From: a virus
Taxonomy: Duplodnaviria; Heunggongvirae; Uroviricota; Caudoviricetes
DNA length: 46,204 nt
IMG/VR virus record: IMGVR_UViG_2541047747_000001
Strand: one strand, 5' to 3'
Shown: positions 1,032 through 29,807 of the stretch, piece by piece
Layout: the number at the start of each line of letters is the position of its first letter
How positions within the stretch are numbered: position 1 is the first letter of the stretch
Made by a program: the position numbers and the translations under genes
Notes under the pieces: generated by a model
The model's input: only the letters and a program-made list of their open reading frames with translations
The model's database searches: none
Told to the model about the DNA's origin: nothing

Positions 1032-4000
1032 GTGGGTAAAGGTGGCGGTAAGGCGCACACACCGCGCGAGGCGAAGGATAATCTCAAATCCACGCAGATG
1101 ATGAGTGTGATTGATGCGATTGGTGAGGGACCGATAGAAGGCCCGGTGAAGGGACTGCAGAGTATCCTGGTGAACAAAACCCCGCTGACGGACACGGACG
1201 GTAATCCCGTGATACACGGTGTGACCGCGGTCTGGCGTGCCGGGGAGCAGGAGCAGACACCACCGGAAGGCTTTGAGTCCTCCGGAGCTGAAACCGGACT
1301 GGGCGTGGAAGTGACGAAGGCAAAACCGGTGACGCGCACCATTACGTCCGCGAACATTGACCGCCTGCGGGTTACCTTCGGGGTGCAGTCACTGGTGCAG
1401 ACCACGTCAAAGGGCGACCGTAATCCTTCCTCTGTCCGGATTCTGATTCAGTTACAGCGTAATGGCCGCTGGGTGACGGAAAAGGATGTCACCATTAACG
1501 GCAAGACCACCTCGCAGTTCCTGGCCTCGGTGATTCTGGATAATCTGCCTCCCCGGCCCTTTAACATCCGGATGGTCAGGGAGACGGCGGACAGCACCAC
1601 GGACCAGCTGCAGAATAAGACGCTGTGGTCGTCATACACCGAAATCATCGATGTGAAACAGTGCTACCCGAACACGGCCATTGTGGGGCTGCAGGTGGAT
1701 GCGGAGCAGTTCGGCGGCCAGCAGATGACGGTGAACTACCATATCCGCGGTCGCATCATCCAGGTGCCGTCAAACTATGACCCGGAAAAACGCACGTACA
1801 GTGGTATCTGGGACGGCAGCCTGAAACCGGCATACAGCAACAACCCGGCCTGGTGTCTGTGGGACATGCTGACTCACCCGCGCTACGGCATGGGAAAACG
1901 TCTGGGGGCGGCGGATGTGGACAAGTGGGCGCTGTATGCCATCGGGCAGTACTGCGACCAGACGGTCCCGGATGGTTTCGGGGGGACCGAGCCGCGGATG
2001 ACCTTTAATGCGTACCTGGCACAACAGCGTAAGGCGTGGGACGTTCTCAGTGATTTCTGCTCTGCGATGCGCTGTATGCCGGTATGGAACGGCCAGACGC
2101 TGACGTTCGTTCAGGACCGTCCGTCGGATGTGGTGTGGCCGTACACCAACAGCGATGTGGTGGTGGATGATAACGGCGTGGGTTTCCGCTACAGCTTCAG
2201 TGCCCTGAAGGACCGGCACACGGCAGTGGAGGTGAATTACACCGACCCGCAGAACGGCTGGCAGACCTCCACGGAACTGGTGGAAGACCCGGAAGCCATA
2301 CTGCGCTACGGACGCAACCTGCTGAAGATGGACGCGTTCGGCTGTACCAGCCGCGGTCAGGCCCACCGTGCCGGGCTGTGGGTGATAAAGACCGAACTGC
2401 TGGAAACGCAGACGGTGGATTTCACGCTCGGGTCACAGGGGCTGCGTCACACACCCGGTGACATCATTGAAATCTGTGATAACGACTATGCCGTGACCAT
2501 GACCGGCGGACGTGTCCTGTCCATCGATGCCGCCAGCCGTACCCTGACGCTGGACCGGGAGGTGACACTGCCGGAGACCGGCACGGCCACTGTTAATCTG
2601 ATTAACGGCAGCGGTAAGCCGGCGAGCGTGGCCATCACCGCACACCCCGCGCCTGACCGGATACAGGTCAGCACCCTGCCGGATGGTGTGGAGACATACG
2701 GGGTGTGGGGACTCTCCCTGCCGTCACTGCGTCGTCGCCTGTTCCGCTGTGTCTCCATCCGGGAAAACACGGACGGCACGTTCGCCATCACGGCGGTGCA
2801 GCACGTACCGGAAAAAGAAGCCATTGTGGATAACGGGGCCAGCTTTGAGCCGCAGTCAGGCAGCCTGAACAGCGTTATCCCACCGGCAGTGCAGCACCTG
2901 ACGGTGGAGGTGAGTGCAGCTGACGGTCAGTATCTGGCACAGGCGAAATGGGACACGCCGCGGGTGGTGAAGGGTGTGCGCTTCAGTCTGCGTCTGACCA
3001 GCGGAAGCGGAGAAGACAGCCGTCTGGTGACCACTGCCATCACCGCAGACACGGAGCACCGTTTCAGCGGCCTGCCGCTCGGGGAATACACCCTGACGGT
3101 GCGGGCGATAAACAGCTACGGCCAGCAGGGTGAACCTGCCACCACCACCTTCCGGATTAACGCACCTGCAAAACCCGCCACCATTGAGCTGACGCCGGGG
3201 TATTTTCAGATAACGGCGGTACCGGTGCTGGCGGTGTATGACCCGACGGTGCAGTTTGAGTTCTGGTTTTCGGAAAAACGCATCACGAACACGGCACAGG
3301 TGGAAAAATCTGCCCGTTATCTGGGGACCGGCAGTCAGTGGACTGTCCAGGGCGATCGGATTAAGCCGGGGATGGATTTCTGGTTTTATGTGCGCAGTGT
3401 CAACCTGGTGGGCAAGTCTGCATTTGTGGAAGCCAGCGGGCAGGCCAGCAATGATGCAAAAGGGTATCTGGAATTTTTCCGTGGTCTGATAGATGAGACG
3501 CTGCTGGGGCAGGCACTGAAAGAGCGCATTGATGCTTCAGCGCTGCGTACGGAGGTCACGCAACTGGAAGAAGATATCCGTCAGCGGATGGACACGGATA
3601 TCGCAGAAGTGACCCGGAAAATCGGGAAGGCGGAAAACAGCCTCACGCAGCTGGTTGCGAAAAAGAATGAGGACCAGACACTGGCCATCGCGCAGGTGAG
3701 CCAGAAAGTGGACCGGGTGAGCAGTGAAATCTCACAGACTGTCAGCCAGGGGCAGTCAGAAAACGCCCGACAGATAGCACAGGTCCGCCAGTACGTGGAT
3801 AAAAAAGGGAGTGAAATTACCTCGACCACGGATAAAAAGCTGGGTGACCAGGCCGTGACCATACAGCAAATCCAGCGGGTTCAGTCAGACACGCGCAATG
3901 AGCTGAATGCCATGTATATGCTGAAGGTGCAGAAAACAAAAAACGGTATTCCCTATGTGGCCGGGATTGGTGCGGGGATTGAGGATGTTGATGGTCAGAC

Positions 4001-4724
4001 GCTGAGCAGTATTCTGCTGCAGGCTGACCGTATCGCGATGATTACCCCGGAGAATGGCAACACCACGCCGCTGTTTGTGGCGCAGGGGAATCAGCTGTTC
4101 ATGAACGACGTGTTCCTGAAGCGACTGTTTGCGGTGAGCATCACGTCATCCGGCAATCCTCCTACGTTTTCCCTGACGCCGGATGGCAGGCTGGCAGCCC
4201 GCAATGCGGATATCAGTGGAGCCATCACGGCGAATACCGGCACGCTCAATAATGTCACCATTAACGAGAACTGTGTCATCAGAGGGAAACTGTCTGCAAA
4301 CCAGATTGAAGGCGATCTCGTTAAAACAGTGGGTAAGGCTTTCCCCCGTGACTCCCGTGCACCGGAGAGGTGGCCATCAGGGACCATTACCGTCAGGGTT
4401 TATGACGATCAGCCGTTTGACCGGCAAATTGTTATTCCGGCGGTGGCATTCAGCGGTGCCAGACATGAGCGGGAGAATAACGATATTTATTCGTCATGCC
4501 GCCTGATAGTACGGAAAAACGGTGCTGAAATTTATAACCGTACCGCGCTGGATAATACGCTGGTTTACAGTGGTGTTATTGATATGCCTGCTGGTCGCGG
4601 CCACATGACGCTGGAGTTTTCTGTATCAGCATGGTGGGTAAATGGCTGGTATCCCACAGCAAGTATCAGCGATTTGCTGGTTGTTGTGATGAAGAAAGCC
4701 ACTGCAGGCATCACGATTAGCTGA
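1032..4724 (+). CDS. J: tail tip host specificity protein J (central tail fibre)
   Basis: Long ORF; [22 protein letters not shown]-terminus and many conserved blocks shared with lambda J; likely GTG start at 1032 after an AGGAG-like RBS; ORF track starts at 987. Confidence 0.9.
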
Positions 4725-5445: not shown

Positions 5446-5455
5446 TGGAGTGGAT

Positions 5456-8400
5456 ATGGCAGCAGTAAAAATCTCAGGTGTGCTGAAAGATGGTGCGGGA
5501 AAACCAATACAGAACTGCACTATTCAACTGAAGGCAAAGCGTAACAGCACCACGGTACTGGTGAACACGGTGGCTTCTGAAAATCCGGATGAAGCCGGAC
5601 GTTACAGCATGGATGTTGAGTATGGCCAGTACAGCGTCACCCTGCTGGTTGAAGGTTTTCCGCCTTCACATGCCGGGACCATTACCGTCTATGAAGGTTC
5701 CAGACCAGGTACGCTGAATGATTTTCTCGGTGCCATGACGGAAGATGATGTCATGCCGGAGGCACTGCGCCGCTTTGAGCAGATGGTGGAAGAGGTGTCA
5801 CGTAACGCCTCCGCGGTTGCACAGAATACGGCAGCCGCGAAAAAATCAGCCAGCGATGCCAGTGCATCAGCCAGCGAGGCGGCAACTCATGCAACCGATG
5901 CTGCAGCCTCAGCACGTGCCGCCAGCACGTCAGCCGGACAGGCCGCGTCGTCGGCTCAGTCAGCGTCTTCCAGCGCAGGAACGGCATCGACAAAGGCCCG
6001 TGAAGCAGCAAAAAGTGCTGCTGCTGCAGAGTCATCAAAAAGCGCGGCAGCTACCAGCGCCAGTGCCGCGAAAACGTCAGAAACGAATGCCGCAGCATCA
6101 CAAAAATCGGCAGCCACTTCTGCATCCACAGCGACCACGAAAGCGTCAGAAGCTGCCACCTCGGCACGGGGTGCGGCGGCCTCAAAAGAGGCAGCGAAAT
6201 CTTCAGAAACGAATGCATCATCAAGTGCCAGTAGTGCAGCTTCCTCGGCAACGGCGGCAGGAAATTCCGCGAAGGCGGCAAAAACGTCCGAGACGAACGC
6301 CAGGTCTTCTGAAACAGCAGCGGGACAGAGCGCCTCAGCTGCGGCAGGTTCAAAAACAGCGGCTGCATTATCTGCCAGTGCCGCGTCAACAAGTGCCGGG
6401 CAGGCCTCAGCCAGTGCCACCGCCGCCGGAAAATCGGCAGAAAGCGCCGCATCATCCGCTTCAACAGCCACAACGAAGGCTGGCAAAGCCACTGAGCAAG
6501 CCACTGCAGCAGCGAGGTCTGCTTCTGCAGCAAAAACCTCTGAAACAAATGCAAAGACTTCAGCAGACAATGCTGCTTCCTCTAAGGCGGCAGCCGCATC
6601 GTCAGCCAGTTCAGCGGCGTCATCGGCATCATCTGCGTCTGCTTCAAAAGATGAGGCGACCAGACAAGCGTCAGCAGCGAAAGGTAGTGCCACGACAGCA
6701 ACAACGAAAGCATCAGAGGCGGCAGGCAGTGCGACGGCGGCATCTCAGAGCAAAGTTGCTGCTGAATCCGCGGCAACGCGTGCCGAAACAGCGGCAAAAC
6801 GGGCAGAGGATATTGCATCCGCCGTGGGGCTTGAGGATGCGAGCACGACGAAAAAGGGGATAGTACAGCTCAGCAGTGCAACAAACAGCACCAGTGAAAA
6901 GCTGGCGGCAACGCCAAAGGCAGTTAAAACTGTTAAAGATAGTTCAGTTCAAAAAACTGGCGACACAATGGGAGGGCAGTTAAAAATCAGCACGATAAAT
7001 GCTCTTCGAATATTCAACCAAGCCTTTGGCCTTATTTTTAGGCGTTCCGAAGATTATCTTCATCTTATTCCGACTAATGAAGGGGAGGGGGAAAATGGAG
7101 ACATCGGTTCATTAAGACCATTCTCTATAAACTTAAGATCAGGGTTGGTGTCCATCGGTAATGGACTAAAAGTTGGTGGTAGTGTTACTGGTAATTTGAC
7201 CGGAAACGCAGATACTGCGACCAAGATCAAGACAGCACGTAAGATTGGGGGCGTGGCATTTGATGGATCGGCAGATATCAACTTGCCTGGAGTCAACGCT
7301 ACCGGTAATCAAAACACTACAGGTAATGCTGCGACCGCCACGAAACTTCAGGCAGCCAGAACGATTAACGGTGTGTCATTTGATGGTAGTGCAAATATCA
7401 CATTGACCCCTTCAAATATTGGGGCATTGGCATTAACTGGAGGGACTCTTTCAGGTGGTTTAACTGCTGCTGGTGAGGTTATTTCAAGGTCAGCAAATGG
7501 TCTGCGTATTGCCTATGGCAACTATGGATTCTTTATCCGAAATGATGGATCAAACACATATTTTATGTTGACAGATTCGGGTAACAGTCTTGGTACGCAC
7601 AATAGCTTAAGGCCGTTTATAATTAGTAACCATACTGGCAATGTTACAATTGCAACTAAATTAAACGCGAGTGGTGGTATCACTGGATCTTTATCGGGTA
7701 ATGCAAGCACAGCAACCAAATTGCAAACTGCAAGGACAATTAACGGCGTAAAATTTGACGGCTCGGCAAATATTGAAGCGTTTCCGCCAGGTGTTCCGCT
7801 GCCGTGGCCATCAGATACACCACCTGCAGGTTATGCGATCATGCAGGGGCAGACGTTTGATAAGGCAGCATATCCGAAACTGGCTATTGCCTATCCTTCA
7901 GGTGTTATTCCAGATATGCGCGGCTGGACAATCAAGGGCAAACCCGCCAGTGGCCGGGCCGTATTGTCTCAGGAACAGGACGGCATAAAATCGCACACCC
8001 ACAGCGCCAGCGCATCCAGTACGGATTTGGGGACGAAAACCACATCGTCGTTTGATTACGGCACTAAATCCACGAATAACACCGGGGCGCATACGCACAG
8101 TCTGAGTGGCTCTACGGGGTCTGCCGGTGTTCATACTCATGGTAATGGTATTCGTTGGCCAGGAGGCGGCGGTTCTGCGTTAGCATTTTATGATGGCGGT
8201 GGGTTCACTTATGTCCAGAATTCACAGTATCAAGTAAGCCCGGAGACTTCTTCCTATAGATCGTATTATCAACGTATTCAGACACAGTCAGCAGGTGCTC
8301 ATACCCACTCGCTGTCTGGTACTGCAGCAAGTTCTGGCGCACATGCACATACTGTAGGTATTGGTGCGCATACGCACTCCGTTGCGATTGGTTCACATGG

Positions 8401-8485
8401 ACACACCATCACCGTTAACGCTGCGGGTAACGCGGAAAACACCGTCAAAAACATCGCATTTAACTATATTGTGAGGCTTGCATAA
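5456..8485 (+). CDS. stf: side tail fibre protein Stf
   Basis: N-terminus [27 protein letters not shown] and C-terminus [18 protein letters not shown] match lambda Stf as recalled; long Ala/Ser-rich KTSETNA repeats; GGAG RBS before the ATG at 5456. Confidence 0.9.
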
Positions 8486-9069
8486 TGGCATTCAGAATGA
8501 GTGAACAAGCACGGACCATAAAAATTTATAATCTGCTGGCCGGAACTAATGAATTTATTGGTGAAGGTGACGCATATATTCCGCCTCATACAGGTCTGCC
8601 AGCAAACAGTACCGATATTGCACCACCAGATATTCCTGCTGGCTTTGTGGCTGTTTTCAACAGTGATGAGGCATCGTGGCATCTCGTTGAAGACCATCGG
8701 GGTAAAACGGTTTATGACGTAGCGTCAGGGGACGAGTTATTTATTTCTGAACTCGGTCCGTTACCGGAAAATGTTACCTGGTTATCGCCGGAAGGGGAGT
8801 TTCAGAAGTGGAACGGCACAGCCTGGGTGAAGGATACGGAAGCAGAAAAACTGTTCCGGATCCGGGAGGCGGAAGAAACAAAAAACAGCCTGATGCAGGT
8901 AGCCAGCGAGCATATTGCGCCGCTTCAGGATGCTGCAGATCTGGAAATTGCAACAGAGGAAGAAATCTCGTTGCTGGAAGCATGGAAAAAGTATCGGGTA
9001 TTGCTGAACCGTGTTGATACGTCAACTGCACCTGATATTGAGTGGCCTACGAACCCTGTCAGGGAGTAA
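8485..9069 (+). CDS. tfa: tail fibre assembly protein Tfa
   Basis: 194 aa, [42 protein letters not shown] nearly identical to lambda Tfa as recalled; start overlaps stf stop (TAATG). Confidence 0.9.
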
Positions 9070-9509: not shown

Positions 9510-9790
9510 AGTGATTTTTTGGGGCATGCATGGGGCAAAAATATTTGTTGTGGGGCATTTTGGGGCATGATTGGGACACTTTGTTACATATGAACTTTGC
9601 CGATTTTTATATGACATGGAAATACAACGCTTTGATTCTTCTAAATAAAAAATATGCTCTTGGGCGTTCTTTAGTGATTTTTAAAAATTCCGTATCACGC
9701 AGTTAACATGACGGGTATTAAGGATTAACTTACTGATTTTAATAAGCCTCTGATGTCACTTTGGTGACTATGGGGCATCATTGGGACATA
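9510..9790. other. putative attP region with integrase arm-type repeats
   Basis: Four TGGGGCA repeats at 9520-9567 and an 18-bp direct repeat TGGGGCAT(G/C)ATTGGGACA at 9561-9578 and 9771-9788, next to the int 3' end; core crossover site not identified. Confidence 0.45.
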
Positions 9791-11038
9791 ATCTGTCAGC
9801 TTCTGATTCAGCATTGCGATCTGTTCTGCATTGCTGTCAGTCATCCATGCTCCGTATACATTGAATACCATCTGGGCACTTGCATGGCCCATCTGGCTGG
9901 CAATGAAGCTTGGGTTTGCTCCGGCAGATAATGACCAGCACGCATAAGTGTGTCGTGACTGGTATGCCTTTCGATGCCTGATCCCTGCACGCTTAATGGC
10001 TGTTTCCCATGAGTCACCTACAGAATCGACTTTGTAGACAAAACCTACCTGTTCGCTTTTTCTAACCACTTGAGGGTTAAACACGAAAGTACATTCATGG
10101 TTCACTGAACGTCCATATTCACGTAGTTGCACCTTGATGTTGTACTGCTTACCCAGTCTTGTCATTTCAGCCTGATTTTTCAGGACACTGATAGCGGGCT
10201 GGATAAGGTGCACAACCCTGTTTGTGCTTGCTTCAGTTTTCGGTAGAGTGAACTCACCAAGTTTCGTATAATTGCGCCTGATGGTAATTGTTCCTGCCTT
10301 CAGATCGATATCTTCCCAGGCCAGGGAGACCAGTTCACCGTGACGCATTCCTGTGTACACAGCCAATGACCACAGGTTTTTCGTCTGCTGATGTCGGCAA
10401 GCATCTATCAGGCGAATAAATTCGTCACGAGTTAGCGGATCTGGCTCTGCCCTGGCTCTTTTAAGAGGCTTAATTCCCTGGAAGGGATTTGCTTCTAAGT
10501 AACCGTGATCTGCAGCAAACTGAAACATTCCAGCGATTGTCGTCATGTAATAATTTACAGTAACGACGCTCCGTCCTTTTGCTGCTGCTTTGTTTTTCGT
10601 TGAATTCTGATACCCGGTCAGCAAATCTTTCCTGATATACAGCAATTCCTCTTTGGTTACCGATGACACCAGTCTACTGCCTCCAATTTTCGGAACCATC
10701 GTTCTTGCAACGGATTCATAGCGATTGAATGCATTTGCAGAGATTTCCATTCGTTTCAGATCCAGCCACTTTTCTTCAAGTTCCTTCACCGTAATTTCTT
10801 TTTTACTTACCCCAAAAGCCTGAAGGTTGGGGGAGTCAGGGAACTGTGCAGCATAATCAAAGCTTCCTGTGCGGATGGCAAAACATACTGATGTCCGCAG
10901 TTCCCCGGCGATCTTCCTGTTCTTGGCAGTGTCAGGGACACCAAGATTTTCCCTGACACGTTTACCTTTAAAATTAAACCAGATGCGTAATGTGCCGCCG
11001 TGGTTTTCGACGCCTGTTGGATATTTGACTTTATCCAT
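9725..11038 (-). CDS. int: tyrosine-type site-specific integrase with N-terminal arm-binding domain
   Basis: 437 aa; C-terminal catalytic region with R..HxxR..Y context (SRHTYACWSL, GHASAQMVFNVY); position next to xis and attP. Confidence 0.85.
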   Translation of the reverse strand: MDKVKYPTGVENHGGTLRIWFNFKGKRVRENLGVPDTAKNRKIAGELRTSVCFAIRTGSFDYAAQFPDSPNLQAFGVSKKEITVKELEEKWLDLKRMEISANAFNRYESVARTMVPKIGGSRLVSSVTKEELLYIRKDLLTGYQNSTKNKAAAKGRSVVTVNYYMTTIAGMFQFAADHGYLEANPFQGIKPLKRARAEPDPLTRDEFIRLIDACRHQQTKNLWSLAVYTGMRHGELVSLAWEDIDLKAGTITIRRNYTKLGEFTLPKTEASTNRVVHLIQPAISVLKNQAEMTRLGKQYNIKVQLREYGRSVNHECTFVFNPQVVRKSEQVGFVYKVDSVGDSWETAIKRAGIRHRKAYQSRHTYACWSLSAGANPSFIASQMGHASAQMVFNVYGAWMTDSNAEQIAMLNQKLTDYVPMMPHSHQSDIRGLLKSVS

Positions 11039-16444: not shown

Positions 16445-17101
16445 TCAGAAAATATCCCACCTGGCATCAACCACAACACCTACTATTTCGCAATCATTGT
16501 CCATTTCTATGATTGGATATTGTGGATTAAGGGGCTTTAGAAACGCCTTTCCCATGTCAGAAATATATTTTTTGAATGTTGCTTCATTGGTAGATTTTTT
16601 TCTGGCGATGACGTAACACCCTGAAAAAACTTCTTTATCTGGGTTGACAAGGATCGACATTCCTTCAGGAAATGTTATTCCTACGGGCGAAGTCATTGAG
16701 TCTCCGTGCACTTCCAGCCAGAACCCCCTCTCACCAGCGTATTTTACAGAATGCCTCCAATTATCCTGATCATACATGTTGTAGTCATCACCAGAAGTTG
16801 CGAATAATCCTGCCTGAACCCAGTTAATTACAGGGTAAGAGTGTGCTGTGTCTCTCTGTGGGCAGCTCTTAACATTATTTTCCCAATGCTTATCTTTTTC
16901 ATCTCCGTTCTGAAGCCACTGCGGTGAACACCGCAGTGCAGCTGCAACTTTAAAAAGGGTGTCACCGTTGAAACTTTTTGTAAGGCCTTGCTCGGCTTTA
17001 CTGATTGCAACTCTGGTGATCCCAGCTTTTTTAGCCAACGCATCTTGTGTTAACCCAGCTTTTTGCCGTGCGTTGATGAGACGTTCACCTAAAGACTTCA
17101 T
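16445..17101 (-). CDS. cI: cI-type prophage repressor (HTH plus LexA-like S24 autopeptidase domain)
   Basis: N-terminal HTH MKSLGERLINARQKAGLTQDALAKKAGIT and C-terminal S24 domain with GDSM serine motif; GGAG RBS before the ATG at 17101; the ORF-track extension to 17176 is rejected. Confidence 0.85.
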   Translation of the reverse strand: MKSLGERLINARQKAGLTQDALAKKAGITRVAISKAEQGLTKSFNGDTLFKVAAALRCSPQWLQNGDEKDKHWENNVKSCPQRDTAHSYPVINWVQAGLFATSGDDYNMYDQDNWRHSVKYAGERGFWLEVHGDSMTSPVGITFPEGMSILVNPDKEVFSGCYVIARKKSTNEATFKKYISDMGKAFLKPLNPQYPIIEMDNDCEIVGVVVDARWDIF

Positions 17102-17123
17102 TTTTCTTCTCCTCTCATGGCTG

Positions 17124-17195
17124 TTGATACTAAAGTAACAGAATTTCTTGATACTTTGGATTCCTGTGGTTAACATCGTTGGATAACAAAGTATC
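17124..17195. promoter_or_regulatory. right operator-like repeat cluster (OR analogue) with candidate rightward promoter
   Basis: TTGATACTAAAGTAAC (17124-17139), TTGATACTTTGG (17148-17159), GGATAACAAAGTATC (17181-17195); -35 TTGATA, 17-bp spacer, -10 TAACAT at 17171-17176. Confidence 0.5.
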
Positions 17196-18720: not shown

Positions 18721-19383
18721 ATGATCATTTCAAGACCAAATATTGATTCTGCAATTTCGGGACGTTACACTGTCTCCGCACCTTATAAAGCGGGTGCCGG
18801 GGGTCGCAGCCCGGAATTGCATACGGCGATATACGACGCGCCAGCGTCTTTTTTATCGTCCGCGCTCACGCACGCCAGAATTATGGTGGGCTGGGCAGGG
18901 GAGCCGAAAGGCTCGCCGGTTTCCGTATGCGCCGGTACTGCGAACCCTGTTCAGTCTGCCACCAGTGAGTTTCGCAGCTCCGGTGGTGGAAGTTATCCAT
19001 TGCATACGGAGGCTGCCATCATGGCTACAGTCCCAACTTCCCCATTCCTCAAAATTGAAGTTGTCAACGGCAAGGCCGTTATTTTCTCCCTGCATGTTGC
19101 CTGCCACTTTAAGCGCATGCACCAGAACATCGTCGACAAAATCGAGTATCTGAACTGCTCACGCGAGTTTTTTACCCGCAATTTCATACCGGGTACTTAT
19201 CACATCTACGGTGACTCCCTGCGTGGTTATTACATCACCCTTGATGGTCTGATGATGCTTCAGCTTGGGTTAAGTCTGCGCACAATGCGGTACTACGAGA
19301 GCTGTATTGAAGCATTCCATGAGGCTGAAACCGTCCAGGGTCACTCCGCGTTCCGTCGTAATCAACGGGAGGTGCACCTATGA
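18721..19383 (+). CDS. Rha-family protein with about 100-aa N-terminal extension (or structured leader plus Rha gene starting near 19021)
   Basis: Rha-like core FLKIEVVNGKAVIFSLHVACHFKRMHQNIVDKIEYL; N-terminal region contains a conserved 61-nt block and an in-frame terminator-like hairpin (18835-18854). Confidence 0.6.
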   Translation: MIISRPNIDSAISGRYTVSAPYKAGAGGRSPELHTAIYDAPASFLSSALTHARIMVGWAGEPKGSPVSVCAGTANPVQSATSEFRSSGGGSYPLHTEAAIMATVPTSPFLKIEVVNGKAVIFSLHVACHFKRMHQNIVDKIEYLNCSREFFTRNFIPGTYHIYGDSLRGYYITLDGLMMLQLGLSLRTMRYYESCIEAFHEAETVQGHSAFRRNQREVHL

Positions 19384-20231
19384 TCCGCCACCAGCATATT
19401 GATTCTGCAATTTCGGGACGTTACACTGTCTCTGCACCTTATAAAGCGGGTGCCGGGCGTGGAAACCCGAAATTCAATATAGAGCACAACCGCGCTCATG
19501 CGGTTTTTTCGTGTCATGAGCATCGTTACGCCCAAATTATGGTGGGGCGTGCAGGGCCAACTTCGGTTGGGCCGGGTTCTATGTTGACCGGTATTTCCAC
19601 CCCTGTACGTCTCACCACCTATATGGTCGTGGAAAGCCTTGGTGGTGAGTTCATTGAATTCAACATAGGGGCTGTCACCATGACTACTCTCCCAACCCAA
19701 TCTCACCCTGAAATCACGATTATCAATGGTCGCGTTGTCACCACATCTCTTGCAGTAGCTAATTACTTTACTAAACGGCATGAGCGGGTTTTAGATAGAA
19801 TTAGAAACCTCGAATGTTCCGCTGAATTTACTGAACACAATTTTGTGTTAAGTGAATACACCGACGCATCAGGCCGCAAACTACCTTGCTATCAAATCAC
19901 CCGCGATGGCTTCGCGTTCCTTGCCATGGGCTTCACTGGTAAACGTGCTGCCCGGTTCAAAGAGGCATACATCAACGCCTTTAACCTGATGGAGAAGAGT
20001 TTATCAGGTGCCGATACGTCTGATATGTCAGCTGTCGCACGAAACGCCAGAGGCGTATACCTGCATTTGCGTGAAATCCATCAAATCTGGACAAGCCAGC
20101 TTTATCCAATGCTTAAGGCCGTTGAATCTCCGCTGGCTAGCAAACTGTACGACCGTGTTGGTGATGCTGTTTTTGGCGCTGCACTTGTTGATTCCAGGCT
20201 GAATGGTTCTGACAAGGAGGTTCGCCCATGA
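19380..20231 (+). CDS. Rha-family protein, paralogue of 18721..19383, same N-terminal extension architecture
   Basis: Rha-like core ITIINGRVVTTSLAVANYFTKRHERVLDRIRNL...QITRDGFAFLAMGFTGKRAARFKEAYINAFN; ATG overlaps the upstream stop. Confidence 0.65.
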   Translation: MIRHQHIDSAISGRYTVSAPYKAGAGRGNPKFNIEHNRAHAVFSCHEHRYAQIMVGRAGPTSVGPGSMLTGISTPVRLTTYMVVESLGGEFIEFNIGAVTMTTLPTQSHPEITIINGRVVTTSLAVANYFTKRHERVLDRIRNLECSAEFTEHNFVLSEYTDASGRKLPCYQITRDGFAFLAMGFTGKRAARFKEAYINAFNLMEKSLSGADTSDMSAVARNARGVYLHLREIHQIWTSQLYPMLKAVESPLASKLYDRVGDAVFGAALVDSRLNGSDKEVRP

Positions 20232-20422
20232 TTAGTTACGAAATCATCATCTCCACTACGGAATACAGAAACGATGTATCAGTTCGCACGGATGTATCTG
20301 TCTGGCACCGTCGCTATAAATCCAGAAAAACAGCGGAACTGAAAGCGGCAGAGATGTGTGAAACCATCTCAATGAAAGGTAGCCCGGTTAAATACGTAAC
20401 TACGGCGGAGGTGCGTCCATGA
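20228..20422 (+). CDS. hypothetical small protein
   Basis: 64-aa ORF with start overlapping the upstream stop and stop overlapping the next start. Confidence 0.45.
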   Translation: MISYEIIISTTEYRNDVSVRTDVSVWHRRYKSRKTAELKAAEMCETISMKGSPVKYVTTAEVRP

Positions 20423-20643
20423 TCCGCCACATCGTTAATTCCCTGTATCACCGATACAACCGTTGCCCCCGAGTGGGGCAGTGGTTTACCACCAGCAACG
20501 GCCTCGTTCTGCGGGTTTGCCTGGTCAATGCAGAAAGTCAGAAGGTTGTCTGCCAGGTGCAGGGGCGTACTTATACCCTGAGTTACCCGCTGGTGGCGTT
20601 TCAGTCCGGAAAAATGTTTAAGCGTCTGGGAGGTGTCGTATGA
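20419..20643 (+). CDS. hypothetical small protein
   Basis: 74-aa ORF coupled on both sides (ATGA overlaps). Confidence 0.45.
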   Translation: MIRHIVNSLYHRYNRCPRVGQWFTTSNGLVLRVCLVNAESQKVVCQVQGRTYTLSYPLVAFQSGKMFKRLGGVV

Positions 20644-21566
20644 GTAGCAAGATCCTCGGTAATGTCTGGGATGCATGCGCAGCATATGGCGTCAAAGGTG
20701 CAAAACTGATGATTATGGCGCGCCTGGCTGATTATTCGAATGATGACGGGGTGTGCTACCCGGGTGTTGAAACCATATGTCGACAGCTTGGATTGGGAGA
20801 AAGTACAGTCAGAACGGCAATCTCCGAACTGGAGGCTGATGGCTGGCTGACGCGTCAGTCACGCCGCAAAGGTAACCGTAATACGTCCAATCTTTATCAT
20901 CTGAATGCTGATCGGCTTGAGCAGCTTGCCAGAACTGAGCGGGATAAGGTTGCAGAACTGAAACAGCAGCGCAGACTTTCAGTATTACGTGACCCTTCAG
21001 ATTCTGAACTTTCAAAATCTGAACCGTCAGAATCTGTATGTTCAGGCGTGTTTGAGCCTTCAGATTCTGGCAAAAATACGCGTTTGACCCTTCAGAATCT
21101 GACTCCAGATCCACAAGGTTTAAAACATGAACCACCAGTAAATTCAAAACATGAACCGCAAGATATTGGCGCATCCGCTGACGCGTCTGCACCAGCGCGT
21201 TCTGCCAGACAGGAATATTCACCGGAATTTGAACAGGCCTGGCAGGAATATCCCAAACGTGCTGGTGGCAATTCAAAATCTGCAGCCTTCAAAGCCTGGA
21301 AAGCCCGTATCAGGGAGGGAATAAAACCGGAGACCATGCTTGATGGCGTGAAGCGGTATGCCGCCTGGGTACGTGCTACAGGAAATACCGGCACACAGTT
21401 CGTGAAGCAGGCTGCGACGTTCTTTGGACCCGATCGTCACTTCGAAGATTACTGGCAACAGCCAGCCGCTCACGGAGGTGGGCGACAGCGACAGGTCGAT
21501 GTCCTGGCTGGCCTGGGAGCCATGTCTGACAAATTCGGTAAATCCAGTAACAAATTGACATTCTGA
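20640..21566 (+). CDS. replication initiation protein (lambda O-like position, N-terminal winged-helix domain)
   Basis: 308 aa; N-terminal HTH region; internal iteron array at the DNA level; followed by DnaC-like and DnaB-like genes. Confidence 0.7.
   Translation: MSSKILGNVWDACAAYGVKGAKLMIMARLADYSNDDGVCYPGVETICRQLGLGESTVRTAISELEADGWLTRQSRRKGNRNTSNLYHLNADRLEQLARTERDKVAELKQQRRLSVLRDPSDSELSKSEPSESVCSGVFEPSDSGKNTRLTLQNLTPDPQGLKHEPPVNSKHEPQDIGASADASAPARSARQEYSPEFEQAWQEYPKRAGGNSKSAAFKAWKARIREGIKPETMLDGVKRYAAWVRATGNTGTQFVKQAATFFGPDRHFEDYWQQPAAHGGGRQRQVDVLAGLGAMSDKFGKSSNKLTF
20994..21157. repeat. candidate replication origin: four near-palindromic iterons plus two direct repeats inside the initiator gene
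   Basis: TCAGATTCTG / TCAGAATCTG at 20997, 21027, 21060 and 21092 (spacing 30-33 bp) and AAAACATGAACC at 21122 and 21146. Confidence 0.6.
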
Positions 21567-21567
21567 G

Positions 21568-22476
21568 GTGACAGCGATGATGACGATTGACCAACGTGAG
21601 AAACAAACAAGACTACAGGCGCGAATGGATGATTTACGGGCAGAAATGGATGAGTTACGGGCAGAGATTGCATTTGCTCAGAAGGGCGAAAAGCCATGGC
21701 CTTATCGTTCCTGCCTGATGCGTGAAGGTCGCGGATATTGCGAAAAACACGGTAAATATCGTACGCATATACTGGTGTGGATCGATCGTAATGGCGAGGA
21801 CAGAGAAAAAATTTCATGCTGCCCTGACTGCTTGATCGCTGAGGCCAGTGATTTGACCATGGAACTGTCGTCCCTCAAGGCGGAAGAACTGACTGATAAC
21901 GCCGGAATTGCTCTGCGTTTTCGGGACTGCGAGTTTGATAATTATCTGGAGGTTAATCCTGACGCAGCCAGAAATCTTGCGGCCTGTCGCCGCTATGCGG
22001 AGAACTGGCCAGATATGCTGGAGAACGGTACCAGTCTTGTTATGACCGGCAGTTGCGGTACCGGGAAAAATCATCTGGCGGTATCAATGGCAAAACACAT
22101 CATCCGTAACTATCTGGCCAGTGTGGAGATCACCGACGTGATGCGCCTTACCCGGGCTGTGAAAAACTGCTGGCGGAATGACAGTGAAAAAACAGCGGAT
22201 GACGTCATTGAGCATTATGCGTCACTGGATTTGCTGATTGTCGACGAAGTCGGCGTTCAGTTTGGCAGTGCGGCTGAAATGGCCATTTTGCAGGAAATTA
22301 TCAATGCCCGGTATGAGGGTATTTTGCCAACTATCCTGATCAGCAACCTTTCACCGGAAGAATTGTGGGCGTTCATCAGTCCCCGGATTGCCGACAGAAT
22401 CACCGATGGCGGGCGCAACTGGTTGTCGTTTAACTGGCCCAGCTACCGTTCTCGTATCGGAGGTGTTGCCGCATGA
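21568..22476 (+). CDS. DnaC/IstB-like AAA+ helicase loader
   Basis: Walker A GSCGTGKNHLA and Walker B LLIVDEVG; N-terminal Cys-rich region. Confidence 0.75.
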   Translation: MTAMMTIDQREKQTRLQARMDDLRAEMDELRAEIAFAQKGEKPWPYRSCLMREGRGYCEKHGKYRTHILVWIDRNGEDREKISCCPDCLIAEASDLTMELSSLKAEELTDNAGIALRFRDCEFDNYLEVNPDAARNLAACRRYAENWPDMLENGTSLVMTGSCGTGKNHLAVSMAKHIIRNYLASVEITDVMRLTRAVKNCWRNDSEKTADDVIEHYASLDLLIVDEVGVQFGSAAEMAILQEIINARYEGILPTILISNLSPEELWAFISPRIADRITDGGRNWLSFNWPSYRSRIGGVAA

Positions 22477-23873
22477 CCAGCCAGAACACCCCGGCATGGC
22501 GTAACGATGACCTGGAAGGCGCTGTCATCGGTGCGTTCTTTCTGCGTGGGGCAGATCCTGAAGTGATGGATATTCTGGTCACACTACCTGCGGACGTTTT
22601 TTCTGTACGAGCGTATAGGGATATCTACACAGGCATCTGCAGACAGGCCCGTGTTTCAGGCGTGATTGACCCTGTGCTGTTGTGTAATGAGATGCCGGAA
22701 CTTGCCCCGGTGATTACTGATACCGGGCGCAAAACCTGGGTGAAGTCTTCACTGGAGCACTATGTTGCAGCGTTGCGGCGCAATGCCGCATTGCGCGATG
22801 CAGAAAAAACGCTGAATGAGGCGTTGCAGAAATTACGTGATGCGCATACCTGTGAAGCAGCTGAAGATGCCCTGAAGGATGCGCAGAACATGATGGCCTC
22901 ATTGTCGACGGAAAAGGGCATTATTCAGCCGGTACATATTGATGATGTGCTTCCGGAGGTGGTTGAGCGTGTTGAATGCCGGAATCAGGGACAGGAGAAA
23001 TCCAGAACGTTGATGACCGGTATTGATGAACTGGACGCAAAAACAGGCGGCATGGAGCCCGGCGACCTGGTATTTATTGCTGCTCGTCCTTCGATGGGTA
23101 AAACCGAACTGGCGCTGGATATCATCGACAAGGTGACTGAACAGGGGCACGGCGTTCTCCTGTTCACAATGGAAATGGCGAACATCCAGATTGGTGAACG
23201 CATGGTATCTGCGGCTGGAGGAATGCCGGTATCACGCCTGAAATCTGTCACTCACTTTGAAGACGAAGACTGGGCACGTTTCTCACAAGGAGTGGGGCGG
23301 ATGACCGGGCGCAATATCTGGATGGTGGACCAGGCGAACCTGACCATTGATGAGATATGCGCAACAACGAAACATCACCTGATTAAACATCCGGAAACGG
23401 CGCTGGTGGTGGTTGATTATCTCGGGCTGATAAAAACCCGAACCACGGGGCGTCATGACCTTGCCGTGGGTGAAATCTCAAAGGGGCTTAAAGGCCTGGC
23501 AAAATCCGGTGGTTTTCCGTTGATTGCGCTGAGCCAGCTCTCCCGCGGTGTGGAGTCCAGACCCAATAAACGCCCCATGAACTCAGACCTGAAAAATTCC
23601 GGAGAAATAGAGGCGGATGCAGACATCATTCTGATGCTTTACAGGGATGAAGTGTACAACCCGGATACGCAGGCCAGGGGCATCGCAGAAATCAATATCA
23701 CGAAACAACGTAACGGTTCTCTGGGGACGATTTATCGGCGTTTTTATAACGGACATTTTCTGCCTGTGGATCAGGAAAGCGCACAGGTTCTTTCCACCCC
23801 AATGCAACAGCCCCAGCCGCGCAGATACAGCAACAAACGAACTGACAGCAGTAAGATGGAGCGTTTCTTTTGA
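22473..23873 (+). CDS. replicative DNA helicase (DnaB family)
   Basis: 466 aa; Walker A context GDLVFIAARPSMGKTELALDI and DnaB-like C-terminal motifs. Confidence 0.85.
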   Translation: MTSQNTPAWRNDDLEGAVIGAFFLRGADPEVMDILVTLPADVFSVRAYRDIYTGICRQARVSGVIDPVLLCNEMPELAPVITDTGRKTWVKSSLEHYVAALRRNAALRDAEKTLNEALQKLRDAHTCEAAEDALKDAQNMMASLSTEKGIIQPVHIDDVLPEVVERVECRNQGQEKSRTLMTGIDELDAKTGGMEPGDLVFIAARPSMGKTELALDIIDKVTEQGHGVLLFTMEMANIQIGERMVSAAGGMPVSRLKSVTHFEDEDWARFSQGVGRMTGRNIWMVDQANLTIDEICATTKHHLIKHPETALVVVDYLGLIKTRTTGRHDLAVGEISKGLKGLAKSGGFPLIALSQLSRGVESRPNKRPMNSDLKNSGEIEADADIILMLYRDEVYNPDTQARGIAEINITKQRNGSLGTIYRRFYNGHFLPVDQESAQVLSTPMQQPQPRRYSNKRTDSSKMERFF

Positions 23874-24127
23874 ACAACCAGACAATGACTTTTACCCCTG
23901 AGCAATTACGTAAACAGGCACAGGAAATGTTGCGGCAGGCGGAACAACTGGAAAAAACAGGTGTAACAAAAGATGCCATTCGTCGGGATATGGTGCCAGC
24001 GCTCAGGGAACTGATGCAGGCAAAACACCGTGCACAAAAAGCAGTGGATGAGCTGGTGGATTGTGTGGCAGAGCTGGAAACCAGAGTTGGTAAGTTTGAA
24101 AAACTGGTGCAGGAGGTACTGCGCTGA
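23870..24127 (+). CDS. hypothetical coiled-coil protein
   Basis: 85-aa ORF coupled between the helicase and Q genes. Confidence 0.45.
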   Translation: MNNQTMTFTPEQLRKQAQEMLRQAEQLEKTGVTKDAIRRDMVPALRELMQAKHRAQKAVDELVDCVAELETRVGKFEKLVQEVLR

Positions 24128-24558: not shown

Positions 24559-25599
24559 GTGAACATTCAGGCAGTAGACATTTTTTGTGGTGCGGGGGGC
24601 TTAACTTTTGGGCTAAAAAAAGCCGGGATTGAGGTTTCTCATGGTATTGATATTGATGAATCCTGCCGTTTTGCTATTGAGAGCAATAATCCTTTAACGC
24701 AGTTCATTAATCAGTCAGTTACAGAACTGCAATCCTGCGATGTGTCTGCTATGTTCAAGGAAGGAAATATTAGATTGCTTGCTGGATGTGCTCCTTGCCA
24801 ACCGTTTTCCAAGTATCGTAATCCAAATAGCCGTAAAGACGATACAAAGTGGCGTTTGTTATATGAGTTTCAAAGGCTTGTAAGTGATGTAATGCCAGAG
24901 CTTGTGACGATGGAGAATGTTCCTCAACTTAGAAACCATAAGGTTTTTGAAGGGTTTGTTAGTGCATTAAAGACTCTTGGATATCATTTGTGGTACGACG
25001 TTGTAAGATGTTCTGAGTATGGCTTACCTCAAAATAGACGTAGATTAATTCTAATTGGTTCCCAATTGGGGCCGATCAGCCTTGATCAAAAAAAAGTTAG
25101 CCGTAAAGTTACTGTTAAGGATGCTATTGGTAGGTTGCCAAAAGTAGGGGCAGGTGAGAAGCTGGAAAGCGATCCCTTGCATCGTTCGCCTAAATTGATG
25201 GATATCAATCTTAAACGAATCATGCATTCTTTACCTGGTGGTACGTGGGATGACTGGCCTGAAGAAATTAGAGCAGACTGTCATAAAAAGAATTCAGGTG
25301 CTACCTATAAAAGCGTTTATGGACGGATGGTTTGGGACGATACTAGCCCTACGATAACTACCCAGTGTTATGGATATGGAAATGGACGATTTGGCCATCC
25401 TGAGCAAAATCGCGCCATAACTTTGCGTGAAGCTGCGATTTTGCAATCCTTTCCAATGGATTATAAATTCCTTGACAAGGAGACGCCTTTTTCATTCCAA
25501 AAATTGGGGACAATGATTGGAAATGCTGTTCCCCCTATAATTGGTCAGATAATAGGGGAAACATTTATCAGACATGTTGAGGGGATAAATACCCGTTAG
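24559..25599 (+). CDS. DNA (cytosine-5)-methyltransferase
   Basis: Motif I FCGAGG, motif IV PCQPFS, ENV and QNRRR motifs; GTG start with GGAG RBS. Confidence 0.85.
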   Translation: MNIQAVDIFCGAGGLTFGLKKAGIEVSHGIDIDESCRFAIESNNPLTQFINQSVTELQSCDVSAMFKEGNIRLLAGCAPCQPFSKYRNPNSRKDDTKWRLLYEFQRLVSDVMPELVTMENVPQLRNHKVFEGFVSALKTLGYHLWYDVVRCSEYGLPQNRRRLILIGSQLGPISLDQKKVSRKVTVKDAIGRLPKVGAGEKLESDPLHRSPKLMDINLKRIMHSLPGGTWDDWPEEIRADCHKKNSGATYKSVYGRMVWDDTSPTITTQCYGYGNGRFGHPEQNRAITLREAAILQSFPMDYKFLDKETPFSFQKLGTMIGNAVPPIIGQIIGETFIRHVEGINTR

Positions 25600-29117: not shown

Positions 29118-29193
29118 GGCCCTTTAGCTCAGTGGTGAGAGCGAGCGACTCATAATCGCCAGGTCGCTGGTTCAAATCCAGCAAGGGCCACCA
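29118..29193 (+). tRNA. tRNA with CAT anticodon (Ile2/lysidine type, ileX-like, or Met)
   Basis: Manual fold: 7-bp acceptor stem GGCCCTT/AAGGGCC, D-stem GCTC/GAGC, anticodon loop CTCATAA, T-loop TTCAAAT, encoded CCA. Confidence 0.85.
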
Positions 29194-29200
29194 TCACATA

Positions 29201-29277
29201 CCGCCATTAGCTCATCAGGAAAGAGCGCCAGCCTTCGAAGCTGGTTGCGCGGAGTTCGGGTCCCCGAAGGCGGTCCA
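29201..29277 (+). tRNA. tRNA-Arg (anticodon TCG)
   Basis: Manual fold: anticodon stem CCAGC/GCTGG, loop CTTCGAA, encoded CCA; one mismatch each in acceptor and T stems. Confidence 0.65.
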
Positions 29278-29290
29278 TTATCTGTATCCT

Positions 29291-29367
29291 GCGTTGTTAG
29301 CTCAGCCGGACAGAGCAATTGCCTTCTAAGCAATCGGTCACTGGTTCGAATCCAGTACAACGCGCCA
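29291..29367 (+). tRNA. tRNA-Arg (anticodon TCT)
   Basis: Manual fold: perfect acceptor stem GCGTTGT/ACAACGC, anticodon loop CTTCTAA, T-loop TTCGAAT, encoded CCA. Confidence 0.85.
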
Positions 29368-29382
29368 CACTTATTTTCCCTG

Positions 29383-29407
29383 GCTCGCTTTTGCGGGCTT
29401 TTTTTTA
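29383..29407 (+). terminator. rho-independent terminator after the tRNA cluster
   Basis: GCTCGC-tttt-GCGGGC followed by a T8 run. Confidence 0.6.
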
Positions 29408-29606
29408 AATGTCTCACAATTCAGGCGGTTGACTGTTGTCTGGTTTGCGGGGAGTTTGTTAAAAGAAACTGGCATGGTGAATCCCCCTGTGCGGAGGGGC
29501 AATCAGCGAGTAGGTATATGGGATAATCGCGGATTCAGGTGCTGGTACTGAATTCACCGGGAGGCACCCGGCACCATGCAGTTGACTGAAACCATGTATA
29601 CTCTCA

Positions 29607-29636
29607 GGCCCCACGCACATGTGTTGGGGCCTTTTT
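29607..29636 (+). terminator. rho-independent terminator upstream of the lysis genes
   Basis: GGCCCCA...TGGGGCC stem followed by TTTTT; an oppositely oriented hairpin with A8 follows at about 29641-29670. Confidence 0.55.
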
Positions 29637-29807
29637 ACATGCAAAAAAAAGCCCGCATATGGATACGGGCGGCAAGGAACAAAAAACGTGAAGTGATCTA
29701 TTCAGCCAGTGGATAATACCCTGACGTTACCATATTGCGCAATCGCGCATTCTTTCTTTTTCGCTCCCCTTATAACTACGCCATCCGTTCGCTGCGGAGG
29801 TGAGGCT

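Follow-up and report, generated by a model that had tools for sequence, protein, structure and literature searches.

Where does a prophage of this kind begin to replicate, and by what sequence would its initiator recognise the place? The question arises in a stretch of 46,204 nucleotides, analysed here at its full length and referred to as the window, for which an original prediction had read a repeat array inside the replication initiator gene as the likely origin. The genes concerned lie in the order initiator, DnaC-like, DnaB-like:

20640..21566, + strand: replication initiator gene, 308 aa, an ORF homologous to phiP27 L17 / P27p17
20640..20987, + strand: coding region of the N-terminal winged-helix DNA-binding domain, aa 1-116 (AF2 model, Foldseek)
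21165..21566, + strand: coding region of the C-terminal helical domain, aa 176-308 (PHROG, AF2, identity with PhiR49_2)
21568..22476, + strand: DnaC-like helicase loader gene (Pfam IstB_IS21, E 4e-14; phrog_50, E 1.5e-87)
22473..23873, + strand: DnaB-like replicative helicase gene (Pfam DnaB_C, E 8.5e-73; phrog_19, E 1.5e-118)

The initiator ORF matches phrog_270, "replication initiation protein" (E 8e-81), its residues 23-70 match Pfam HTH_36 (PF13730; E 9e-12, 45 bits against a gathering cut-off of 25), and the gene shows 94% nucleotide identity to phiP27 gene P27p17. All of the predicted repeats lie within 20640-21566, and their placement inside an initiator gene is thus borne out. In the AF2 model, pLDDT over aa 1-120 is mostly 81-95 and falls to 72 at aa 71-80; the N-domain is built from helices, a beta wing and then a long helix (aa 90-116). 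Its top Foldseek matches are MarR/ArsR/TFE winged helices, and the search against the PDB returned generic winged-helix regulators only and no specific initiator. The C-domain is modelled as a helical bundle (aa 190-277, pLDDT 85-95); it has no match in the Pfam search, in PHROG it is matched by families named "DnaD-like helicase loader / primosomal protein", and it is presumed to be the helicase/loader-recruiting module. Rha-type regulators are encoded upstream, and several DNA-binding proteins are encoded near the initiator. A promoter and terminator scan of 20200-21800 gave nothing above shuffled expectation.

The core of the array is an 11-bp palindrome, TCAGA-W-TCTGA, which is present in five copies within 106 bp (20997-21102):

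20997..21007, no strand: iteron 1, TCAGATTCTGA, a perfect 11-bp palindrome (sequence, motif search)
21012..21022, no strand: iteron 2, TCAAAATCTGA (10-mer TCAAAATCTG), a G-to-A variant and the commonest form in the family
21027..21037, no strand: iteron 3, TCAGAATCTGT (sequence, motif search)
21060..21070, no strand: iteron 4, TCAGATTCTGG (sequence, motif search)
21071..21091, no strand: spacer CAAAAATACGCGTTTGACCCT, an A-tract and a T-tract between iterons 4 and 5, conserved in the family
21092..21102, no strand: iteron 5 (distal), TCAGAATCTGA, read L-Q-N-L, in frame 2 as against frame 0 for iterons 1-4

Four 10-mers spaced 30-33 bp apart had been predicted, and the exact copies of TCAGATTCTG / TCAGAATCTG at 20997, 21027, 21060 and 21092 do follow one another in steps of 30, 33 and 32 bp. 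However, the copy at 21012 (TCAAAATCTG) had been missed, and because this iteron belongs to the array, the true spacing is 15, 15, 33 and 32 bp. With up to one mismatch, the motif occurs 21 times in the 46-kb window against 6.5 +/- 2.7 expected, a count not reached in any of 100 shuffles; the exact matches are all confined to the 106-bp stretch, and no second cluster of the motif was found anywhere in the 46-kb window. A sixth one-mismatch match at 21273 (TCAAAATCTG) was treated as chance because it lies inside the C-domain common to phages with other iterons. Upstream of the distal iteron, the family has the consensus gcaaaaanggcggTTTTgACCCg, and the alignment of close relatives agrees.

At the protein level, the array together with the A+T repeats that follow it encodes ...DPSDSELSKSEPSESVCSGVFEPSDSGKNTRLTLQNLTPDPQGLKHEPPVNSKHEPQD... 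within the ORF. The five palindromes correspond to aa ~120-155 of 308, and the array-encoded residues 130-188 are predicted by the AF2 model to be disordered between two confident domains. The linker peptides named in the original prediction (PSDSE, EPSES, EPSDSG) are correct by translation, and the different frame of iteron 5 (LQNL) went unremarked there. An antisense ORF (20809-21276) overlaps the array; antisense frames are left open mechanically because the palindromic repeats are spaced in multiples of three.

The repeats were followed through 73 full-length homologues of the initiator gene, which come from over 30 genera of Enterobacterales and in which the N-domain is mostly 55-68% and up to 88% identical. 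The motif YCARAWTCTG occurs in these relatives in 1-8 copies at gene nt ~300-430, with at least three copies in all except four Proteus/Providencia loci. In the linker tripeptides S-[DEKN]-S, the first serine is encoded by TCA in 283 of 316 cases (90%, against a background of 16%) and the second by TCT in 248 (78%, against 9%), while A or T occupies the third position of the middle codon in 314 (99%, against 53%); AAA, the form seen in iteron 2, is the middle codon in 163 of the 316 copies. At conserved degenerate residues of the N-domain, the mean major-codon frequency is 0.50 and the pairwise third-position identity 0.44. Synonymous sites of the adjoining N-domain are thus randomised while the array codons are fixed, which argues for selection on the DNA and not on the peptide. 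One reading frame is shared by 297 of 300 family copies; in the relatives L006 and L007, the iteron 5 site stands in frame 0, and compensating -1/+1 indels separate them from the window. Across the family, the 15-bp unit has an invariant core and variable spacer bases, and close relatives, which have 4, 5 or 8 copies, differ in the number of complete 15-bp units. As judged from these comparisons, the repeats are constrained as DNA rather than as peptide.

Exchange between phages bears on the partner of the repeats. When the window is compared with PhiR49_2 by blastn, homology covers 19396-20644 and 21164-24079 (87% nt) and is absent from the interval between them. The flanking proteins of the two phages are close (upstream ORFs 96-100%, C-domain 100%, loader 80% and helicase 93% identical), and their N-domains are only 23% identical. 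The intervening block is one feature:

20645..21163, + strand: replication-specificity cassette (N-domain, iterons and A+T repeats), swapped as one block relative to PhiR49_2

Among the 73 genes, the same N-domain and array are joined to C-domains of the Phg_2220_C type in 56, the lambda-O type in 14, the window type in 2 and another type in 1, the types being assigned against three reference C-domains (single-linkage clustering merged everything). The lambda-O-type C-domain begins right after the array in its 14 carriers. The window-type C-domain also occurs elsewhere with other N-domains, each of which has its own repeat array at the same place, and about 55 other phages match the initiator gene only from query nt 512-525 onward, in the C-domain part. 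Across the sequences compared, the array is inherited only together with the HTH_36 N-domain, whichever C-domain follows.

Downstream of the iterons, two further features were recorded:

21108..21111, no strand: sole GATC (Dam site) remaining in this copy of the putative origin, where relatives have about two to three
21119..21163, no strand: A+T-rich segment with the repeats TTTAAAACATGAACC (21119-21133) and TTCAAAACATGAACC (21143-21157) (repeats, duplex stability)

The two direct repeats expected after the 10-mers are indeed present, as AAAACATGAACC at 21122-21133 and 21146-21157, inside TTYAAAACATGAACC units that start at 21119 and 21143, 24 bp apart. Duplex stability is lowest, both within the gene and within 20000-22500, in the 40-mer that begins at 21115 (z 1.9), and the segment 21119..21163 is a candidate DNA-unwinding element. 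With ~60% A+T (z 1.9, 97th percentile of the window), the segment is far milder than the A+T-rich region of lambda, which counts against the origin reading. In the family, the post-iteron block (GATCCGTCAGTAAATTCAAAACA-GATCCATCAG) has conserved third codon positions and 61-68% A+T, and it carries a mean of 1.9 GATC per 62 nt, equal to 31/kb against 4.8/kb gene-wide. Two of the three GATC sites kept by relatives have been lost from the copy in the window, and this also counts against the origin reading.

Sites that are non-random, selected as DNA, linked to the N-domain, placed in the slot of the lambda ori within the coding sequence of a disordered linker, and located beside the least stable duplex together support an origin. 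The interval 20997-21163, in the linker-coding part of the initiator gene, is therefore quite probably the origin from which a phiP27-like lambdoid E. coli prophage replicates vegetatively. The sequence-level expectations examined came out as foreseen, if only weakly for the A+T-rich segment, and comparison thus favours the likely-origin reading of the original prediction. The GC-skew check suggested along with it gave no support: cumulative skew tracks the direction of transcription without an inflection near 21 kb, and it is uninformative in such genomes.

Other explanations of the repeats have been weighed against an origin. They could be a by-product of a low-complexity linker, generated by slippage of a PS[DEK]S pentapeptide and devoid of function as DNA, as the 15-bp spacing (five codons), the single frame of nearly all copies (297/300) and the gain or loss of whole 15-bp units would suggest. 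However, the codons are fixed far beyond background across lineages with otherwise randomised synonymous sites, the third base of the middle codon remains A or T in 314 of 316 although the residue itself varies (D/E/K/N), the DNA of iteron 5 is kept in a different frame, and spacer bases vary around the invariant core; concerted evolution, moreover, homogenises repeats within an array, not between genera. Contradicted already by the codon and frame tests, this explanation is hardly tenable. Constraint might instead act at the RNA level, with the palindromes folding the initiator mRNA into a structure that adjusts its translation or stability. As RNA, the segment 20980-21170 does fold better than its shuffles (z = -4.4), but any palindromic repeat set yields such a score because the palindromes are mutually complementary. 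Copy number (3-8) and spacing vary among relatives, so that no fixed RNA fold is conserved; a lone 5-1-5 palindrome is unable to form a hairpin, and an Rfam search of the region gave no match. We give the RNA account almost no credence.

The two remaining explanations accept a protein-binding site. If the protein were some other HTH protein of the phage, for example of the Rha type, or a factor of the host, the array would mark a site of regulation or recombination; a palindrome of 11 bp is a generic target for dimers, and the genes for DNA-binding proteins nearby count in favour of this idea. Yet PhiR49_2 combines near-identical neighbours with a different array, only the initiator N-domain changing along with it, and a site for a host factor would not vary with the type of the phage N-domain, which makes another protein very unlikely. 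Alternatively, the initiator itself may bind the repeats for autoregulation or copy control (operator, roadblock, handcuffing), with replication starting elsewhere. What the comparisons establish is a DNA element coupled to the N-domain, which is compatible with such a non-origin role, and plasmid iterons also have control roles. Against it stand the 46-kb window without another cluster of the motif, the exact ori-lambda slot that the array occupies in hybrids with a lambda-O C-domain, the conserved A+T-rich, GATC-bearing block belonging to the same cassette, and the scan of 20200-21800, in which no promoter-like site for the array to regulate was found; a purely regulatory role is improbable.

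With the array read as an origin, a possible course of initiation can be proposed. Derepression would allow rightward early transcription, from which the initiator, the DnaC-like loader and the DnaB-like helicase would be made. Dimers of the N-terminal winged-helix domain may then bind the five TCAGA-W-TCTGA sites, of which sites 1-3 are spaced 15 bp and sites 3-5 are separated by roughly three turns of the helix. The nucleoprotein complex so formed could stress the adjacent A+T-rich segment (21110-21165, with the AAAACATGAACC repeats) and lead to its opening, after which the C-terminal domain may recruit the helicase-loader complex, followed by host primase and polymerase. Initiator binding, unwinding, helicase recruitment and origin firing are events that we infer for this locus. 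In the literature that could be searched, the motif strings were met only in unrelated primer sequences, and no description of the iteron sequence as a binding site, no experimental report of binding or origin activity for this N-domain family, and no description of a phiP27, SfII or Eru origin was found.

A wider reading, possible but rather doubtful, is that the HTH_36 phage initiators make up a large class of "origin-in-linker" replicons with two layers, the second block being a distinct functional signal and more than just A+T-rich DNA. The first layer would consist of fast-evolving palindromic iterons that set specificity, and the second would be the more conserved post-iteron block, represented here by GATCC-TCAGTAAATTCAAAACAT units with Dam sites and, in a sister class, by AGAACCAGTCA units common to phages of E. 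coli, Salmonella and Vibrio irrespective of the iterons they carry. This second layer could serve for helicase loading or single-strand binding, or as an unwinding site controlled by Dam/SeqA.

The analysis offers a testable candidate origin and a putative recognition sequence (TCAGA-W-TCTGA) for phiP27-like replication modules. Both extend to a widespread family of Enterobacterales prophages, among them the Shigella serotype-converting phages SfII and SfIV; the module of the window resembles the non-lambda "Eru" replication types of Stx phages. It also suggests an annotation rule, by which the disordered linker of HTH_36 initiators would be the place of the origin, with N-domain and iterons together as an exchangeable specificity cassette. 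The general understanding of phage origins is unchanged, the design being that of textbook lambda.

Comparable arrangements are known outside the lambdoid phages. In the Bacillus phage SPP1, oriL lies within gene 38, and the initiator, loader and helicase are G38P, G39P and G40P; SPP1 resembles the window in the order initiator, loader, DnaB-type helicase and in having binding repeats inside the initiator gene, and its host belongs to a different phylum. Iteron plasmid origins (RepA, pi, TrfA) likewise consist of repeated sites for winged-helix initiators beside an A+T-rich unwinding element. Plasmid iterons are usually 17-22-bp direct repeats located outside the rep gene, bound by monomers and usually accompanied by DnaA boxes; unlike those of the RepA/pi type, the sites of the window are short palindromes inside the gene.

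Other HTH_36 initiators, including Stx-phage "Eru" types, are found in PhiR49_2, cdtI, Stx2a_F451, Salmonella SI5 and Vibrio D75, which share with the window the HTH_36 N-domain, palindromic repeats, a short second repeat set and an exchangeable C-domain. The repeats of these phages lie at gene nt ~260-350, and their iterons are 15-bp 5-N5-5 palindromes with 21-24-bp spacing, such as GTGCA-N5-TTCAC, GGGCAGGAGCTGCCC and GTGACAAAATGTCAC; the post-iteron block is of the AGAACCAGTCA type in them, whereas it is of the GATCC..TCAGTAAATTCAAAACAT type in the family of the window. According to PMC8951638, none of these initiators, the non-lambda "Eru" types among them, has been characterised by experiment. 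Stx phage 933W and the Wegrzyn-laboratory phage "P27" have lambda-type origins, with six iterons in the O gene, and their O proteins are near-lambda, with two or three substitutions plus 13 residues (PMC7466680). Like the window, they represent E. coli temperate phages with an origin within the initiator gene and a variable iteron number (PMC7466680); their extra iterons lengthen the protein linker, and the relatives of the window likewise vary in copy number. This "P27" was ruled out as a carrier of the replication module of phiP27 NC_003356 and is a lambda-O-type phage, because its O protein is near-lambda and the homologue of the window initiator is L17.

The origin plan proposed here is the known ori-in-initiator design of lambda and P22, with a DNA-binding domain unrelated to that of lambda. 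The parallel with the lambda ori drawn in the original prediction therefore holds for the slot in the gene and fails for the N-domain, which is no homologue of that of lambda O: the window initiator matches HTH_36 and other HTH families in Pfam and not PF04492 (Phage_rep_O), the family of lambda O and P22 gp18 (E 6e-36 and 7e-38), and BLASTP gave no significant match to either protein. In all three phages, dyad-symmetric repeats, bound by the initiator in lambda and P22 and presumably so in the window, lie inside the initiator gene between the parts coding for the N- and C-domains, at nt 358-463 of 927 in the window and nt 349-433 of 900 in lambda O. An A+T-rich segment comes next in lambda, and the window shows the same tendency with a weaker signal. 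In the window, as in lambda and P22 (gene 18), a flexible linker is encoded, a mosaic exchange junction lies just past the known or putative origin, and the N-domain is matched in specificity to its iterons, with the C-domain as a module of its own. The sites of the window are 11 bp long and some are 15 bp apart, whereas the iterons of lambda are 18-19 bp long with ~20-24-bp spacing, and the A+T-rich part is much milder in the window. Where lambda employs a P-type protein, the initiator of the window is partnered by a DnaC-like loader and the phage's own DnaB-like helicase.

The window, a lambdoid prophage, is a close relative of phage phiP27, and the genes around the initiator are arranged as follows.

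16445-17176, minus strand: cI-type repressor
Between the cI-type repressor and the initiator: Rha/Ash-type regulators, then two small ORFs
20640-21566, plus strand: initiator ORF of 308 aa (Pfam HTH_36 at aa 23-70, E 9e-12; PHROG "replication initiation protein", E 8e-81)
21568-22476, plus strand: DnaC-like loader
22473-23873, plus strand: DnaB-like helicase
After the DnaB-like helicase gene: Q-like antiterminator

The initiator ORF shares 94% DNA identity with phiP27 gene P27p17 (L17), the record annotation of which is "helix-turn-helix domain-containing protein" and nothing further. Of 5426 complete E. coli genomes, 57 carry the identical N-terminal part together with the repeat array, each in a single copy and in every case on the chromosome. 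Three tRNA genes (Met-type CAT, Arg TCG, and Arg TCT) are located at 29118-29642, followed by an STnc100 sRNA match; this site is downstream of the Q-like gene, where phiP27 is said to carry stx2e. Since no stx-sized ORF follows the tRNA genes, the prophage looks like a toxin-negative relative. Large tail-type ORFs at 987-4724 and 5450-8485 precede an integrase-sized ORF (9725-11038, minus strand), and the late genes start again towards the right end of the window. Relative to an integrated prophage, the window therefore seems to be circularly permuted; alternatively, it spans a junction. An IS009 RNA match was obtained at 8828-9026. Two tandem modules of isrK and C4 antisense RNA (18778-18966 and 19434-19622, plus strand; Rfam matches above the gathering score) are situated in an "ash family" ORF (18721-19383) and in the N-terminal part of an Ash+Rha ORF (19380-20231). 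The pair looks like a duplicated antirepressor control unit of the P1/P7 immI (c4-ant) type, and the "Ash" N-termini, which are almost the same in sequence, may merely reflect translation of the conserved RNA instead of a real protein. Directly past the Q-like gene, a 346-aa ORF (24559-25599, plus strand) is a candidate cytosine-5 DNA methyltransferase, judged by typical motifs (GAGG..., ENV, and QxRxR) in its translation.

The original prediction placed the likely origin at four near-palindromic 10-mers followed by two direct repeats within the initiator gene. A motif search recovered the four exact 10-mers at 20997, 21027, 21060, and 21092, but the total of four did not hold because a fifth copy, TCAAAATCTG, is present at 21012, which makes the true spacing 15, 15, 33, and 32 bp. 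The core of the array is an 11-bp palindrome, TCAGA-W-TCTGA, for which the window contains 21 matches with at most one mismatch, compared with 6.5 +/- 2.7 in shuffled sequences (0 of 100 shuffles reached 21), and every exact match falls inside the same 106-bp stretch. The direct repeats were also located, as TTYAAAACATGAACC units at 21119 and 21143, 24 bp apart and after the palindromes, and translation of the ORF returned the predicted linker peptides.

One genome per bacterial species was scanned for homologues, which yielded 80 loci with N-domain homologues from more than 30 Enterobacterales genera, mostly at 55-68% protein identity (closest 88%), including 73 full-length genes. With the exception of four Proteus/Providencia loci, each full-length gene has YCARAWTCTG three to eight times around gene nt ~300-430, and the usual layout is a run of 15-bp tandem units with one further copy distal to it. 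In the linker's S-[DEKN]-S tripeptides, the first serine is encoded by TCA in 283 of 316 cases and the second by TCT in 248 of 316, compared with 16% and 9% elsewhere in the same genes, while the variable middle residue (K, E, D, or N) has A or T at its third codon position in 314 of 316 (53% elsewhere in the same genes). In the adjoining N-domain, the mean major-codon frequency at conserved degenerate residues is 0.50, and the third-position identity of 0.44 between gene pairs indicates that synonymous sites are randomized across the sample. The core of the 15-bp unit is nearly invariant and its spacer bases are variable. In the window, phiP27, and Citrobacter locus L005, the fifth iteron is read as L-Q-N-L, not P-S-E-S: compared with homologous loci L006/L007, one nucleotide is missing ahead of the iteron and one is added behind it, which shifts the frame but leaves the DNA motif intact. 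Slippage with concerted evolution could homogenize the copies of a single array but cannot account for a core that is shared across genera down to its synonymous bases. These comparisons show that the repeats are selected as DNA and not as peptide, and the interpretations of the array as a purely peptide repeat or as an mRNA structure both fail on specific results.

The array belongs with the N-terminal DNA-binding domain. In approximately 55 phages, homology is limited to the 3' part of the initiator gene, from query nt 512-525 (window 21151-21164), and these phages possess other N-domains with other repeat arrays at the same place, such as GTGCA-N5-TTCAC repeats in PhiR49_2 and cdtI and CAGAGAATAC repeats in Stx1_14040. 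Further palindromes occupy this position in more distant HTH_36 initiators, GGGCAGGAGCTGCCC in Stx2a_F451 and Salmonella SI5 and GTGACAAAATGTCAC in Vibrio phage D75. Conversely, in 73 genes the window-type N-domain and YCARAWTCTG array are joined to four C-domain types (Phg_2220_C in 56, lambda-O in 14, the window type in 2, and another type in 1). The clearest example is PhiR49_2, which shows 87% DNA identity to the window over 19396-20644 and 21164-24079 and is unrelated in between; protein identities are 100% and 96% for the upstream ORFs, 100% for the C-domain, 80% for the loader, and 93% for the helicase, but only 23% for the N-domain. The N-domain, the five palindromes, and the AAAACATGAACC repeats, which together make up 20645-21163, thus behave as one exchangeable cassette. 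No nearby protein other than the N-domain changes with the array between these two phages; a site for another protein, like a control-only site, fails as an explanation on specific results.

In the AlphaFold model, a winged-helix N-domain that ends in a long helix (aa 3-116) and a helical C-domain (aa 190-277) are confidently predicted, and aa 130-188, for which the array and the A+T-rich block code, are of low confidence (pLDDT <50 except aa 137-140). The structural neighbours of the N-domain are dimeric MarR/ArsR-type winged helices, a fit with the possible binding of one dimer per palindrome. Past the distal iteron, the family possesses a block with conserved third codon positions, GCAAAAA..GTTTTGACCCG-CAGAATCTG-G.GGGGATCCGTCAGTAAATTCAAAACA.GATCCATCAG, which is 61-68% A+T and contains about two GATC sites per locus (31/kb vs 4.8/kb gene-wide). 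Within the gene, and also within 20000-22500, duplex stability is lowest in the 40-mer that begins at 21115, a modest signal (z 1.9). The AAAACATGAACC repeats of the window contain GAACC (21129-21133 and 21153-21157), in contrast to GATCC in phiP27 and other E. coli relatives (L001, L087, and L088); an identical T-to-A change in each repeat has thus removed two of the putative origin's three Dam sites.

The sister class of HTH_36 initiators has a post-iteron block of its own, AGAACC..TCACTCTTT.GAACCAGTCA, for which a scan of viral contigs returned at least 120 stretches. In the 117 usable stretches among the matches listed, the block is preceded by many 5-N5-5 palindromic iteron types with 21-24-bp spacing. 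Loci L002, L004, L089, L090, L091, and L093-L2xx (E. coli, Salmonella, and Vibrio; L093-L2xx are viral contigs) combine differing iterons with a near-identical block, CCCAGAACCAGTCACTCTTTTGAACCAGTCAAnGAACC, which encodes the peptide PRTSHSFEPV. Origins in HTH_36 initiators may thus consist of two layers, with variable iterons and a second element conserved at either the DNA or the peptide level.

Lambda-like initiation is the best explanation of the array. Initiator dimers would bind the five palindromes to form a nucleoprotein complex, the adjacent A+T-rich repeats may then open, and the C-domain could recruit the phage DnaB-like helicase together with the DnaC-like loader. The anatomy, DNA-level selection, N-domain linkage, and positional equivalence to ori-lambda are shown by the sequence comparisons. 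No description of iterons or an origin for the window-type HTH_36 family was found in the literature searched, and record annotations contain none. According to a survey of replication regions in Stx phages published in 2022 (PMC8951638), nothing was known of how replication proteins work in the non-lambdoid "Eru" types, several of which have HTH_36 proteins. The O protein of the "P27" studied by the Wegrzyn laboratory is near-lambda (PMC7466680), whereas the sequenced Stx2e phage phiP27 (NC_003356) has the HTH_36 initiator L17, a different replication module, and origin or O-protein biochemistry of "P27" should therefore not be transferred to phiP27. For work on phiP27-like phages the array is of practical use, both in annotation and in experiments, and it would not surprise a specialist.

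In lambda and P22, the origin lies inside the initiator gene, N-domains and iterons form specificity pairs, and a mosaic joint follows the origin, a textbook arrangement. In the 900-nt O gene, the lambda iterons are annotated at nt 349-433; the window array occupies nt 358-463 of 927. Lambda O and P22 gp18 belong to Phage_rep_O, and each has an annotated origin within its gene; the window initiator is unlike either, with no detectable similarity to them. The array therefore follows the lambda and P22 plan, but with a DNA-binding module that is not homologous to theirs. Providencia locus L031 joins the family N-domain and array to a C-domain that shares 38% identity with lambda O (146 residues, E 1e-28); the alignment begins at O residue 140, directly past iteron 4, and 13 further loci are built in the same way. 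Among close E. coli relatives, the iterons number four in ETEC1732 (L087), five in the window and phiP27, and eight in L3_E36 (L088), differing by whole 15-bp units with initiator length changing in step, which parallels the four iterons of lambda and six of lambda-type Stx phages (PMC7466680).
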